DNA from: an uncultured Gemmatimonadales bacterium | Lineage (GTDB): Bacteria > Gemmatimonadota > Gemmatimonadetes > Gemmatimonadales > GWC2-71-9 | Length of the DNA stretch: 64,000 nucleotides | Assembly: GCA_963821525.1 (NCBI GenBank) | Contig: CAWGED010000019.1 | Span: 768,001-832,000, forward strand | Reading direction: 5' to 3' | Part shown: one piece after another, positions 53,388 to 62,335 of the stretch | How positions within the stretch are numbered: position 1 is the first letter of the stretch | Layout of the letters: each line of letters begins with the position of its first letter | The notes under the pieces: generated by a model | What the model was told of the DNA's origin: nothing | The model's input: the letters and a program-made list of their open reading frames with translations, nothing else | Database searches by the model: none | Program-made: the position numbers and the translations under genes

Positions 53388-55067
53388 TCAGGCGACCGCG
53401 TTACGTCCGTTGGCCTTCGCGTGGTACAGTGCGCGATCGGCCAGCACAAGTAAATCCCCCTCGTGGGGTCGCCTCACGTCGTATTCGGCGACGCCGATAC
53501 TGGCAGTCACCAGCCCGACCGGGTAGCCCAGCCGGCGCCCCACTCCTTCGATCCCGGCCCGGATCGCCTCGCCGACCCGATTGGCTCCCGCCAGGTCGGT
53601 CCGGTTGAGCAGGACCACGAACTCATCACCGCCGTAGCGTGCCGCCAGGTCCGAGGCGCGAATCGCGCTCTTCAGCTCGGTCGCCACCGCACGAAGCACC
53701 GCGTTCCCCGCCTCGTGCCCGTACTGATCGTTCACCAGCTTGAAGTGGTCCAGATCGATGAACAGGACCGCGAACCCCTCCAGGCTGCGCTTGCTTCGCT
53801 CGACCTCGTAACTCAGCCGGTCGTTCAGAACTTTGTACGCGGCGAGCCCGGTCAGGGTATCCACCGCCGCATCGCGCTGCGCCTCTTCGACCCGCCGAGC
53901 CTGGTAGGGTACACACTGCTTGAGTGATGCCCGGCCCATGGCCGCCGCCTGGGCGAACGCGGCGCAGGTCTCGAATCCGCAGGCCCGGCAGTCCCACGGC
54001 TTGCCGTGAGGACCCAGGCCGATCGCGGCGAGCACTTCATCCACCTGGGCCGTATCGGCCCGCACCAGTCGCGGCTGGATCTCGAAGATGGCTCCGTAGC
54101 TCGCGACTACTGCGTCGTCCACCACCGGCTGGCGGCTCCGCGGAGGCTCGCTGTTCTCCACGACCGAACGGCGCCAGAACAGCTCTTCACGCGGGCCCGA
54201 GAGCGGGTGATCCAGCCATCCCTCGTGGGCCAGCAGATCGACGAACCCCAGGTCGAGCCGGTCTATCACGACCGCGCGGGACAGACCGCGCAGCTCACCC
54301 AATCCCCGCAGCTTCCGGAACCGCTTGCTCGAGTGCCGAGATTCTTCCAGCAGCGAGAGCGGTATCCCGCCCGCCAGGCTCAGGTAGCGACGATGTTCCG
54401 CGGGGACCCGGGCGTAGTGTGCGGGCTGCGCGAGGGGGCTCACACCGCGGAGCCGGAACAGCTGCTCCAGGTCCTGGAAGGTGATCGCCGAATCGAGCTC
54501 CTCGCGCCCGGCAGGCGGGCACACACCGGCGTATACCACCTCCAGCCCTTCGCCCCACTGCGCCCGCAGGTACCTCGCCTCCGCCAGCGCGGGCAACGTC
54601 ACCGGCGCGAGATAGGGAACCAGTTCCGGATAGTCTCTCCGGATCGCCTCCACCACCACCGGGTCGGTGGAGCGGATCATGGTGCCCCAGTTTTCCTCAC
54701 GCCACAGCCTCAAGTACTCCGAGGCGACCAACTCGTCTCCCACTACCCCGCGGGTCACCAGACGGAACCCGGCGGAGTAGCATGCGTTCACGATTTGCTC
54801 CGGCGCCGCCGGGTAGAAGTACGCCACGGCCTCCGGACTCAGGATCAGCGCGCCGTCGCCTCTCGTGGCGACCGCGATGGCGCGACCCAATTCACCAGTG
54901 ACTTCAATCGCGTGATGCGGGCAAGCGGGAACGCAGAGCCCGCACCGAATGCAGCTCTCGTCTACGATGCGCACCAGTGGATCCTGCACCTCGACGGCGC
55001 CGGTCGGGCACACGCGTACGCAGGCCAGGCACGTAACGCAGGCCGCCGGGTCAATCGAGAAAATCAC
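53388..55067 (-). CDS. Diguanylate cyclase with 2[4Fe-4S], degenerate [FeFe]-hydrogenase-like and FeS domains
   Basis: Two CxxCxxCxxxCP motifs; YPELVPYLAPV, DSAITFQDL; CRACGFETC..C; RASD I-site and GGDEF. Confidence 0.9.
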   Translation of the reverse strand: MIFSIDPAACVTCLACVRVCPTGAVEVQDPLVRIVDESCIRCGLCVPACPHHAIEVTGELGRAIAVATRGDGALILSPEAVAYFYPAAPEQIVNACYSAGFRLVTRGVVGDELVASEYLRLWREENWGTMIRSTDPVVVEAIRRDYPELVPYLAPVTLPALAEARYLRAQWGEGLEVVYAGVCPPAGREELDSAITFQDLEQLFRLRGVSPLAQPAHYARVPAEHRRYLSLAGGIPLSLLEESRHSSKRFRKLRGLGELRGLSRAVVIDRLDLGFVDLLAHEGWLDHPLSGPREELFWRRSVVENSEPPRSRQPVVDDAVVASYGAIFEIQPRLVRADTAQVDEVLAAIGLGPHGKPWDCRACGFETCAAFAQAAAMGRASLKQCVPYQARRVEEAQRDAAVDTLTGLAAYKVLNDRLSYEVERSKRSLEGFAVLFIDLDHFKLVNDQYGHEAGNAVLRAVATELKSAIRASDLAARYGGDEFVVLLNRTDLAGANRVGEAIRAGIEGVGRRLGYPVGLVTASIGVAEYDVRRPHEGDLLVLADRALYHAKANGRNAVA

Positions 55068-58556: not shown

Positions 58557-59460
58557 GTTTCTCTCCCATCAGCATTGCCAGCAAAGCCTTCTGCACGTGC
58601 AAACGGTTCTCTGCTTCGTCCCATACCTTGGACTGCGGACCGTCGATCACGCCCTCGGTGACTTCCTCTCCCCGGTGAGCGGGAAGGCAGTGAAGGAAGA
58701 TCGCGTTGGGTTGGGCCAGGGCCATCAACTCCTCATCCACCGTGTAGCCCTGGAAGGCCAGCGCCCTCGTTTCGGCCTCGCCCTCCTGCCCCATTGAGGC
58801 CCAGACGTCGGTGGTGATCACGTCGGCTCCCTCGGCGGCTTCTTCCGGAAGCTCGGTAATGAGAATGTTGGTGAGCTTGCTGTTCCGCTCGAAGAGCTCG
58901 TGATCCGGCTCGTAGCCCTCCGGACAGGCGAGGCGCAGCTCGAAGCCCAGTACACCGGCCGCATCCATCCAGCTATTCGCCATGTTGTTTCCATCGCCGA
59001 TCCAGGCGACCGACTTGCCATTCCATCCGCCGAGGCATTCCTGCACCGTCATCAGATCGGCGAGCACCTGACAGGGGTGCTGCAGGTCGGTCAAACCGTT
59101 GATCACCGGGACGTCGGCGTAGCGGGCCAGCTCGACCACGTCGGCCTGGGCAAAGGTCCTGATCATGATTCCGTGGACATACCGGGAGAGGACCCGGGCC
59201 ATGTCCTTGATGGGCTCGCCGCGACCCAGCTGGATGTCCCGGGCCGAAAGGAAAACCGCCTGGCCACCGAGCTGGTGGGCTCCCACTTCGAAGGACACCC
59301 GGGTTCGGGTGGAGCTCTTGGCGAAGACCATCGCAAGGGTCTGCCCTTCGAGCGGCCGGTTGCGGTACTTCCCGCTCTTCATCTGCCCGGCAAGGTCAAA
59401 GAGCTAGGAGAGTTCGGTTTTCGAGAGGTCGGGAATCGCCAGGAAGTCGCGTTTGGGCAT
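58552..59460 (-). CDS. argF: Ornithine carbamoyltransferase (frameshift near 5' end)
   Basis: SSTRTRVSFE, HPCQ, DVWASMGQE, HCLPAHRGEE. Confidence 0.95.
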
Positions 59461-59597
59461 GCCGTGCAGCGTGGAGAGGGGGTCCGCCAATTTGGCAGAG
59501 GAAGGTAATGGGTACCGAAGGGTCCGGGGCAGGTGCCCTTTGGGCAGATGACTCTTGACCATGACCGGCTTAGGGTTAGACAACTTCGGAGAGTAGC

Positions 59598-61239
59598 ATG
59601 CAACCCTTCGACCCCGCCGCCTTCGTCCTGATCACCGCCCTGATCGGCGGGGTGATCCTGCTTGCGAGCGCGGTATCCGGGCTCCTCGAAAAGACCAGCA
59701 TCCCCCACGTCGCGGTCTTCCTGCTTCTGGGGTTGCTGCTTGGACCTCACGGGCTGGGATTGGTGGACTTCGGAATGCGCTCAGGTGCGCTGGGTGCCGT
59801 GGCCACGCTCAGCCTCGTGCTGGTGCTCTTCACCGACGCCCTCGGCATCAATCCCCAGGCGCTTCGCCAGCATCTCGGAGTGGCTGCGGTTCTGCTGGGG
59901 CCAGGCACCGTTCTCACCGCCGCGATCATCGGACTGGCCGCAGCGTTACTGCTCGGCGTCGGTCCAGCACAGGCCGCCGTGCTCGGCGCGGCCCTCGCCT
60001 CAACCGATCCGGTCATGATGCGCGGGCTGATCCGCCGGCCCGGAGTCCGGCCAGCGACGAGAACGGCACTCGGGATCGAGAGCGGCCTGAACGACGCGGT
60101 TCTGTTGCCGATCGTCGTGATCGCGATGGCCTTCATGCGGGAGGCGGCTCCGACCATCGGGCAGGTGAGCCGAGTGGCGCTGGACGTGCTCGTGCTGGGA
60201 CCGGCCGCCGGTGTGGCGACCGGATATCTCGCGGTGCGGCTCCTCGAAGCAGTGAGAGGCCGCTACGGGATTCGGCGAGACTACGAGTCGATGTACGTGC
60301 TGGGTGTCGCGTTCACCGCATTCGCGATCGCCGAATCACTCCACGCCAGTGGCTTCATGGCAGCCTTTGCCGCTGGGCTTACCATAGACCTGCTGGATGT
60401 GGAGCTGTGTGACTGCTTCCACGATTACGGGGAAGCCACGTCCACGATGCTACTGCTGTTCACCTTCGTTCTGCTGGGGCTGTCGCTCATCTGGACCGGC
60501 CTCTCGATCATGTCGGCGCAGACCCTGGCGTTCGCGGTATTGGCGCTGGTGGCGCGGTCGCTGGTTCTGCTCGTAGCCCTTCCACGCAACGCCGTGGACC
60601 CGAGAGCCGGAAGCTCGTCGTGTGGTTCGGCCCGCGCGGGCTGAGCTCGCTGCTTCTCGTGCTGCTTCCGATTTTCACGGGGATCGAGGGGAGCAGTCAT
60701 TGTTCGCGCCGGTCGCCACCGTGGTGCTGCTCTCCGTCGTGGTGCACGGAGGGATGCTGGCCCTCTGGATTCGCAAGCTGGAACCTGCGCAGGTGAGCGC
60801 GGCGACCGAAAGTCAGGAGACACCTCTCGTCGCCCATTCGGAGCTGATCACCTTCGACGAGATAAAGCGGCTGGATGCGGCGGGAATTCCTTATCGTCTG
60901 CTCGATGTCCGTTCGGTGGGCAGCTATGCAGGTTCCGACATCACGGCGCGCGGGTCGGTGCGGGTTGATCCCGATCGCCCGGTCGAGAGTGCCGCGGAGC
61001 TGGCGCTCCCCAAACACGATTGGCTGGTGGCCTACTGTGCCTGAAGGAACGAAGCCACAAGCACCCGTGTGGTGCGAGAGCTGAAGCAGGCCGGATGGAC
61101 CAGGGCGAGAGCACTGGTGGGTGGATGGGGGAAATGGGTGGAGCTGGGGCTGCCGGTCGAGGCCAAGGATTCCCCCGATTCCAAATCGCGGGCCGGCAGT
61201 GCGTGGCTGCGGCGCGCGAGTGAGAGTACTGAGGATTAG
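59598..61239 (+). CDS. CPA1/NhaP-type cation:proton antiporter fused to a rhodanese domain; in-frame UGA (putative Sec) at 61042
   Basis: LASTDPV, ESGLNDA, WFGPRGL (frameshifts at about 60600-60680); rhodanese LLDVRS..YCA[UGA]RNEATS..ALVGGWGKWVELGLPVE. Confidence 0.85.
61045..61082 (+). promoter_or_regulatory. Putative bacterial SECIS hairpin
   Basis: gcacc-cgtgt-ggtgc stem-loop (61061-61075) starting 16 nt after the UGA. Confidence 0.5.
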
Positions 61240-61279
61240 GCGAATGTTCCCGCGATTTAAATCGCGGCTCGGCAGAGCG

Positions 61280-62335
61280 TCACTGCGCGACGCGTGCCCT
61301 CCGGGTCAGCTCTTTAGTCTCCGAATCAAGCCGGGGCTCCAGCGGCAACACCATTTCTCCGCGGCGGTTGGTCACCTCCGCCGCCTCGTCGTACGCCGAA
61401 AAAAAGCGCGCCGGATCACACATCGCGCTGATCAGTACAGGGCGGCCGTGCACATTTTCCACCGCCTGTCCGATGCGCCAGCCGACGGTGTACCAAGGCC
61501 TGAATGCCGAAGTAGGCCGTGCGCGTCCGGTCAGAGAGTCCGCCTTCAAGCGGCCATCGAGCGCGTCCGTGAAGACCTCCAGCTCGGCTCGGTCCTGAGC
61601 AAAGTTGGCCACGTCCCGGTCCGCGGCGCCCGGGTGGCGGAGTCGCTGGTGGCCTGAGGATGGACATCCGGCCCTCCAGCTGCGGCCAGCATCGCCAGGC
61701 CTTCGCCCAGGGCGCTGGCCCACATGCGGGCATCACGCACTTCGGATGAAATCGTGTCGGAGACCTCGTGGCAGGCCGCGGCGATACCGACGTGATGCAG
61801 CTCATGCGCCATGGTGTTCTCCACCTGTTCCGCGCGTTCAGCGGATTCACGTAGAGGAAGATCGCCCGGGTGCCGTCGAGATCGAACACGAAGCTGTTGG
61901 TTCGCGGTTTGATTTCGAGGAAGAGCGGGCTTTGAGCGGAGTTCCAGCCGGCAGGTAGGCCAGGGCGCGAGTGGCCGCCGACCGGGGATCGAGTCGGTGG
62001 AGCTGCCCGAGGGCCCTCGCAAGGCTTTGGGTCCGCGCCTTGAGCGAGTCGGATTTCAGAAATGCCTGGAAGTCGGCGTCGCTGAATTGCCGGCCCATCG
62101 CGGCTTCACGTTTCTTCAGGGCCCGATATCCCTCGGTAGCGAAGAGGCGTTCCCAGTCATCGGCGCAATCGGGCGGCCTGCTACCCGGGCTTCCAGGATG
62201 GCGAGCGCTGATCGGCCTCATCAGTGACCAGCTCGACCTGAACGTTGGAAGCGAAGACCCGGAAGTTCCTTGGGCATATGCCGCCTCCGCGACACCAATC
62301 AGCAACGCGATCAGGAGTCGAGCGGAAACCTGCAT
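61280..62335 (-). CDS. Secreted putative Zn-dependent protease (frameshifted)
   Basis: Signal peptide; AHELHHVG; WYTVGW. Confidence 0.7.

Follow-up and report, generated by a model that had tools for sequence, protein, structure and literature searches.

A cation/proton antiporter gene with a fused rhodanese domain and a probable selenocysteine codon in an uncultured Gemmatimonadales bacterium

Rhodanese domains with a Cys-x-selenocysteine (CxU) motif have been catalogued as predicted selenoproteins in the available portions of PMC13188914 and PMC9312934. The corresponding family model, NF041203 rhodanese_LYCAU (TKB26178.1; form 3, or COG0607 form 2), refers to a stand-alone protein of ~150 aa with a hydrophobic N-terminus that appears to resemble a signal peptide. 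PaNhaP, MjNhaP1, SOS1 and YcgO (CvrA, NhaP2) are CPA1 antiporters, and in PaNhaP a cytoplasmic control point has been described: its His292 is an allosteric switch at the dimer interface, and an engineered inter-protomer disulfide at this position (H292C) gave 35% activity when oxidised and 150% when reduced, a roughly fourfold difference (PMC4381880, available part). The gene described here shares fold and ion-site residues with these antiporters and the CxU motif, the following U-x-x-E-x-T-S-x-R helix and the GGW motif with NF041203. In contrast to the NF041203 reference protein, its rhodanese domain is predicted to be cytoplasmic and to follow a 13-helix antiporter.

Gene structure, reading frame and neighbourhood

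The gene is encoded in a window of 64,000 nucleotides, which is the whole stretch of DNA that was analysed, and its nearest named relatives are found in Gemmatimonadales MAGs. Residue numbers follow an intact congener ortholog.

59598..61239, + strand: whole gene, a CPA1/NhaP-type antiporter with a predicted C-terminal Sec-rhodanese; 547 aa, Sec at residue 483
59598, + strand: ATG start codon
59598..60790 (end approximate), + strand: 13-helix NhaP-fold transporter domain (PF00999, AF2 model), interrupted by two 1-nt deletions in the assembly
60599..60600, + strand: 1-nt deletion; extra base in 3/3 congeners and in contigs of runs X1 and X5
60694..60696 (~60695), + strand: 1-nt deletion; extra base in congeners and in short-read contigs
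61237..61239, + strand: true stop codon TAG (frame read from the sequence)

The N-terminal part of the product matches PF00999 (E 1e-33). A first-pass annotation of this DNA had described an in-frame TGA with a rhodanese-type continuation to a TAG ending at 61239, and this frame was verified. It reads ...WLVAYCA-TGA(61042-61044)-RNEATSTRVVRELKQAGW...GLPVE..., and read-through of the TGA that follows YCA gives RNEATSTRVVREL...GLPVE up to the TAG at 61237-61239. Once read through, the C-terminal part matches the rhodanese family PF00581 at 31.8 bits, above the cut-off of 22.2.

The annotation also proposed that the two domains are fused across frameshifts at about 60600-60680. In the assembly these are two single-base deletions, and their positions had to be corrected to after 60599 and ~60695. 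The fusion itself is a single frame in all three congeners (L051-L053, 83-89% nucleotide identity), which have unbroken open reading frames of 545-551 aa, and both missing bases are present in short-read contigs from two of four runs (X1 and X5), these contigs being from close relatives and not from the source sample (no run contained half of the stretch's words). Across the genome collection, the two domains lie in one frame in 78/80 loci, with one further locus frameshifted between the domains and one on a contig that ends early. On this comparative evidence the antiporter-rhodanese fusion is real, and errors of assembly are the most likely source of both frameshifts. The assembly is indel-prone, with selB in three frames and several neighbouring window genes that look split. 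Between 55190 and 59461 of the window, argF-like, gcvT-like and sigma-54 regulator genes look frameshift-split, which fits an assembly of this kind.

An RNA contig from run X15 spans 60858-61083 with one difference; as it may be DNA, it was not taken as expression. Neither a promoter-like site nor a + strand terminator was found in 59300-61500. Clustering of the neighbourhoods of 78 loci, labelled from translations, yielded lineage-level synteny only, with clusters of gcvT (~12), argF (6), HslU-like (8), transhydrogenase-like (8) and divergent second K+/H+ antiporter genes (9-10), and no conserved redox, sulfur or metal genes beside the fusion. The divergent neighbour is a CvrA-like K+/H+ antiporter gene in one Gemmatimonadales clade (L060, L079, L097, L098, L111, L114, L116, L119, L121 and L124). 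Elsewhere in the window (53388-55067, - strand), translation gives a ferredoxin/Fe-only-hydrogenase-like N-terminus fused to a GGDEF-type ('YGGDEF') diguanylate cyclase domain, possibly a redox-sensing c-di-GMP enzyme.

Decoding of the in-frame UGA

61042..61044, + strand: UGA predicted to be read as selenocysteine (U483), from TGA/Cys pairing across loci
61061..61075, + strand: candidate bacterial SECIS, 5-bp stem, loop CGTGT beginning 21 nt after the UGA

At the position of U483, TGA is present in 76 of 80 related loci and a Cys codon (TGC or TGT) in three, with the last locus incomplete through an early contig end, so that the Cys/UGA pairing named as a check in the first-pass annotation is found among relatives. 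The hosts of TGA loci are Gemmatimonadota, Acidobacteriota, Chloroflexota, deltaproteobacteria/Binatia, Myxococcota, Planctomycetota and Eisenbacteria, and the hosts of the Cys forms among the 80 loci are Nitrospirota and Gammaproteobacteria. In the 73 TGA loci parsed, the frame past the UGA is open and conserved for 41-68 aa. Eleven strong matches with a single in-frame TGA were obtained among 60 relatives, comprising eight antiporter fusions, one locus cut by a contig start, one with only a 116-aa frame, and one DedA-like fusion. A scan of Chloroflexota (400 genomes and one Chloroflexaceae genome) returned 21 loci; the 18 that could be parsed all carry TGA, and three were unparsed or cut.

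Among the best 120 protein hits, 96 end exactly at Cx, 23 continue as CxC, and one is partial. As public gene calls are cut at the UGA in this way, a widespread selenoprotein transporter appears to be hidden in annotation. In a quick IQ-TREE phylogeny of 107 selected rows, the Cys forms are scattered over the tree with 15 changes, at least 13 of them forced by well-supported branches, which indicates repeated Sec/Cys exchange. Some Cys forms carry the automatic JGI name 'antiporter/rhodanese-related sulfurtransferase', and one antiporter of 678 aa (P0016) has two tandem CxC rhodanese domains.

The hairpin with a G-containing loop that the first-pass annotation placed after the UGA was located at 61061-61075. 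Its loop, G, spacing and stem all agree with the bacterial SECIS rules in the Fig. 2 legend of PMC13188914, the part of that source used here (loop of 3-9 nt with a G at its first or second position, distance of 16-37 nt to the UGA, stem of 4-16 bp). Its minimum free energy, for which the rule is -7.5, comes to -6.1 kcal/mol with the stem alone and to -8.7 kcal/mol over 61054-61085. Over 76 TGA sequences the stem pairs in 380/380 cells with 18 compensatory double changes; slid controls pair at 20-73%, and 0/500 shuffles match the covariation, a test that is optimistic owing to the relatedness of the sequences. The stem is complete in all 98 TGA loci (some redundant) and broken in 4/5 Cys loci. 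Codon choice inside the element is fixed as well, with the Ser codon AGY in 98/98 against 37% elsewhere and the Arg codon CGK in 98/98 against 43% elsewhere (75 genes counted). Genome-wide, the same hairpin pattern follows only 12/114,481 TGA triplets, three of them at the exact same offset, a rarity that places the hairpin beyond chance.

A search of the source genome (G000) for the selenocysteine machinery, also suggested in the first-pass annotation, found selA above cut-off, tRNA-Sec at 67.4 bits against a cut-off of 47, and a full-length selB spread over three frames, with no match to selD in this 81%-complete assembly. All four congeners have selD, and in two of them its surroundings, 19 kb in length, lack any counterpart in the G000 assembly. 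The selD of the source genome probably lies in a part that was not assembled. At least two further UGA genes with hairpins occur in the same genome, both on the - strand: a peroxiredoxin reading SG-U-TIQ (G000:C19:266823) and a formate dehydrogenase alpha-like gene reading RT-U-HAP (G000:C19:314536). Among 250 genomes of the phylum, the fusion is present in 20, all with TGA, and a selA match is found in 20/20 (one below cut-off) compared to a background of 201/250, in a tally where kin are not independent and the unpublished genome G185 is included. In genomes that may be incomplete, three of the Cys form gave no selA match and two of the TGA form did. Gemmatimonadota appear to be broadly Sec-using (selA 201/250), yet their name does not occur in the available text of the 2026 selenoproteome review PMC13188914.

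It is accordingly very hard to maintain that the UGA is a real stop leaving a half-rhodanese tail, that it is read as Trp or Cys, or that the locus is a pseudogene. The ending of public gene calls at the UGA (96/120 proteins at Cx), the two frameshifts in this copy and the missing selD match would fit one or other of these options. They are opposed by the residues conserved past the UGA, by a SECIS that covaries and constrains codons, by the selA distribution across TGA-bearing relatives and Cys-form genomes, and by the fact that selB and neighbouring housekeeping genes are frameshifted likewise. Reading as Trp was rejected, since homologs have Cys and TGA is a genuine stop in 43/78 fusion genes. 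The refuting conditions named in the first-pass annotation were each tested, and none overturned its proposal of a probable selenoprotein fusion; the early "stop" of the antiporter gene is almost certainly decoded as selenocysteine. Overall, we put at roughly 95% the probability that the product is a single CPA1 cation/H+ antiporter of 547 aa whose ion site is intact, and that a SECIS read by SelB recodes the UGA as Sec, yielding a cytoplasmic C-x-U rhodanese-fold domain.

Ion site, rhodanese loop and Cys-Asp-Cys motif

59835..59837, + strand: D80, equivalent of PaNhaP ion ligand E73; invariant in 80 sequences (4cz8 alignment; role from PMC4381880, available part)
60000..60011, + strand: S-T-D-P motif in unwound helix 5; T136/D137 correspond to PaNhaP T129/D130; invariant (PMC4381880, available part)
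60078..60095, + strand: ESxxND motif in helix 6; E161/S162/N165/D166 correspond to PaNhaP E154/S155/N158/D159; E161, N165 and D166 invariant, S162 in at least 90%
60408..60416, + strand: Cys-Asp-Cys (C271, C273) at the cytoplasmic start of helix 10, a proposed redox switch (alignment; AF2 helix 271-294)
60844..61161, + strand: rhodanese-fold domain, predicted cytoplasmic, form-3 (CxU) type (PF00581, NF041203 best match, AF2, structure matches)
61036..61038, + strand: Cys481, canonical rhodanese catalytic position and first residue of CxU; invariant, aligned to solved rhodaneses

For the congener ortholog L053, with Sec entered as Cys and an 80-row alignment, AF2 gave a model with 13 membrane helices and the rhodanese domain (pLDDT 91.7, pTM 0.87). 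PaNhaP is its best Foldseek match, and the SOS1, MjNhaP1 and PaNhaP structures match it at Z 37-39.5. The first-pass label of an NhaP-like antiporter thus agrees with PF00999, the fold and the ion-site residues. The CPA1 ion-site set (D80, T136, D137, E161, N165 and D166) and the salt-bridge arginine R320 are invariant in 80 sequences; with the PaNhaP ion-site residues having invariant counterparts (S162 in at least 90%), the transporter is probably active. Its best NCBIfam match is the potassium/proton antiporter PRK05326, below cut-off, and its S-T-D-P falls between the K+ pattern S-T-D-A and the Na+ pattern P-T-D-P (bioRxiv 10.64898/2026.08.14.744764), which leaves K+ versus Na+ ambiguous.

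The rhodanese domain of the model has a pLDDT of 94 and matches rhodanese structures at Z up to 14.3. NF041203, 'rhodanese-related (seleno)protein', is the best NCBIfam match in 12/12 members; here it scores 79.4 bits (E 1.8e-22) over profile positions 22-126 only, below its curated cut-off of 115, in an architecture that is fused instead of stand-alone. The domain is therefore related to NF041203 and not a member of that equivalog. Sec-containing rhodaneses were said to be known in the first-pass annotation, and Table 1 of PMC13188914, the part available, does list the CxU type (NF041203) as a predicted selenoprotein. The further statement that the UGA sits where rhodaneses have Cys is correct for the CxC homologs of this fusion; the catalytic Cys of solved rhodaneses, by alignment, corresponds to the first Cys of the motif (61036-61038). 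Sec lies two residues beyond that position, in a loop two residues longer than in solved rhodaneses, which suggests that the domain is not a textbook sulfurtransferase.

This loop bears on the possibility that the fusion is a sensor of reactive sulfur or selenium, in which sulfane sulfur (or Se) would be taken on C481/U483, the Cys-Asp-Cys (CDC) motif persulfidated and the antiporter gated by polysulfide, thiosulfate or selenide. The rhodanese fold and the Cys at the canonical catalytic position suit such a sensor, and counting from Sec gives U-x4-T, in line with the published catalytic loop rule Cx4R/T (PMC10135228). Counted from the canonical C481, the loop exceeds the length of Cx4R/T by two residues and that of Cx5R by one; sulfur genes are not conserved nearby, and the apparent peroxiredoxin (Prx)-like domain swap described below favours general thiol redox chemistry. 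We consider a sulfur or selenium sensor unlikely.

Within the transporter, L-C-D-C-F is invariant in 80 aligned sequences. Among all distinct fetched proteins covering the site, CxC is present in 204/208 rhodanese-fused proteins compared to 20/114 without a fused domain (15 were unclear and three Prx-type), with conservation inflated by searches that were seeded with CDC-bearing sequences, one of them using CDC as a pattern. Of the 20 domainless CxC proteins, about half look like fragments or partial calls and seven fall in a sister group of stand-alone proteins; a further 2-3 are possibly complete LCxCF proteins. Stand-alone paralogs from relatives have CxC in 2/9. With about 7-10 stand-alone antiporters carrying CxC and 4/208 fused ones lacking it, the link between CDC and fusion is not absolute. 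Among the stand-alone antiporters that share CxC at this site, L133:17-2020 (G182) lies directly behind OsmC-like and DUF302-like genes, as labelled from translations.

In a profile alignment at ~21% identity, read back ungapped from a shared FVLLG, the motif aligns to PaNhaP 287-289, so that C273 corresponds to K289 and D276 to His292. C273 thus lies three residues before the His292 equivalent on one helix (AF2 helix 271-294), and this mapping would place a natural CDC about one helical turn from the position at which a homolog is gated by a disulfide, on the side of the Sec domain. The C-terminus of H13 is cytoplasmic, so that CDC and CxU would face the same side. An idea that CDC matches the KefC regulatory loop was set aside, as no paper was found for it.

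Four soft ligands on one cytoplasmic face could also form a soft-metal or metalloid site, in which Zn, Cu(I), Hg(II) or As(III) would be bound by CxU together with CDC, or by the CDC motifs of both protomers, and the antiporter thereby gated or protected. The i/i+2 spacing of C271 and C273 at a helix start would be awkward for an internal disulfide, and rhodanese-fold arsenate reductases exist. Such a site is nevertheless quite unlikely in our estimation, given conserved neighbour clusters without metal-resistance genes and a Prx-like replacement domain that fits metal binding poorly.

Proposed redox gating and comparison with known systems

That replacement domain occurs in two sets of LCDCF antiporters, P0140 (a cluster of three, one named Anaerolineae) and P0142, which have an AhpC/TSA-like start in place of the rhodanese and end exactly at RGHW (proteins only). 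A further LCDCF antiporter, P0391, likewise has an AhpC/TSA-like domain stopping at RGHW (protein only). Published Prx-like selenoproteins read FYRGxW-U-PYC, with U following W (PMC12013277 supplement 1), and the Prx-type antiporter is probably a second seleno-fusion, judging from where these proteins end. The swap points to a need for thiol redox chemistry and not for the rhodanese itself. A region search for the Prx-type fusion returned P0140 alone, a metagenome scan with P0140 gave 79 loci with none of Prx type among those parsed, and the 18 loci parsed from the Chloroflexota scan (21 loci) are all of rhodanese type.

We give about even odds to a redox-gated antiporter, in which the CxU domain would make or break a CDC disulfide according to the cytoplasmic redox state and so gate cation/H+ exchange. 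The CxU domain would serve as a built-in thiol/selenol redox relay, its selenolate sensing a cytoplasmic oxidant or the thiol state and exchanging with CDC where helix 10 begins on the cytoplasmic side, at the dimer interface and the mouth of the funnel. A disulfide would then form or open at CDC, probably joining two protomers or taking the form of a transient Se-S link, and electroneutral K+(Na+)/H+ exchange would rise or fall as a result. KefC would offer the nearest parallel, with a stress signal leading to ion flux and a change in cytoplasmic pH. This model draws on the CDC-fusion association, the proximity to His292, the shared cytoplasmic side, the Prx-like swap and the retention of CxC in Cys forms that are scattered over the tree; it is weakened by a mapping at ~21% identity, CxC in proteins without a fused domain, seeded searches, a Prx case of two clusters and the lack of conserved redox, sulfur or metal neighbours. 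The conserved CDC motif lends independent comparative support to the redox gating that the first-pass annotation offered as an inference. More broadly, a widespread CPA1 subfamily may have a natural Cys redox switch at the allosteric site of the dimer interface, operated by an interchangeable fused selenoenzyme (CxU rhodanese or UxxC peroxiredoxin-like); this proposal is tentative, at a little under even odds.

The CxU domain is not confined to antiporters. It also occurs fused to a DedA-like membrane protein with a similar hairpin (L032:805-1794, G013) and alone (TKB26178.1), and a degenerate paralog, P0158, which lacks CDC and the ND ion motif, still ends at YCA and is possibly a regulatory pseudo-transporter. 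These cases would suit an arrangement without gating, in which the Sec-rhodanese works on its own as a redox or detoxifying enzyme, with the antiporter as a mere membrane anchor and CDC as a structural motif. The tight association of CDC with the fusion, and its location at a known allosteric site, make this improbable in our view.

Should redox gating hold, a CPA1 antiporter would carry a native, covalent redox switch at a site where switching has until now been demonstrated in an engineered PaNhaP mutant alone, and one of many uncharacterised Sec-rhodaneses would gain an identifiable substrate in cis. If the subfamily proposal is true, soil and sediment bacteria from at least eight phyla would possess a selenium-dependent gate linking cytoplasmic redox state directly to pH and to the flux of K+/Na+/H+. 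With the natural Cys forms, gating could be studied in E. coli with no need to engineer Sec insertion.

The literature searched yielded no description of the antiporter fusion; Haft and Tolstoy 2025, Haft and Gwadz 2023 and Deng et al. 2026 might list it. By term counts it is not mentioned in PMC13188914, PMC9312934, PMC1976440 or PMC12013277 with four supplements, insofar as their text was available, and 'antiporter' and 'exchanger' have 0 occurrences in the available text of the 2026 catalogue of 119 prokaryotic selenoprotein families (PMC13188914). The catalogued Sec transporters in the accessible sources (YeeE/YedE, SaoP/SaoX/SaoB, the SO_0444 family, E1-E2 ATPase and the mercuric transport protein) also have Sec in or on a membrane transporter, and none of these is a cation/proton antiporter. 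KefC likewise places a C-terminal cytoplasmic sensor in control of a 13-TM antiporter by thiol/electrophile state (PMC11150392, available part); its ion motif is QD and the binding of GSH by its RCK domain is non-covalent, whereas the fusion has an ND motif and a Sec domain suited to covalent chemistry. With neither the Kef-type QD motif nor an RCK domain in the fusion, the resemblance is one of analogy and not of membership. Other CPA1 antiporters bear RCK/CorC or cyclic-nucleotide domains, and in their place this one bears a predicted Sec-rhodanese together with a native CDC near the His292-equivalent site.
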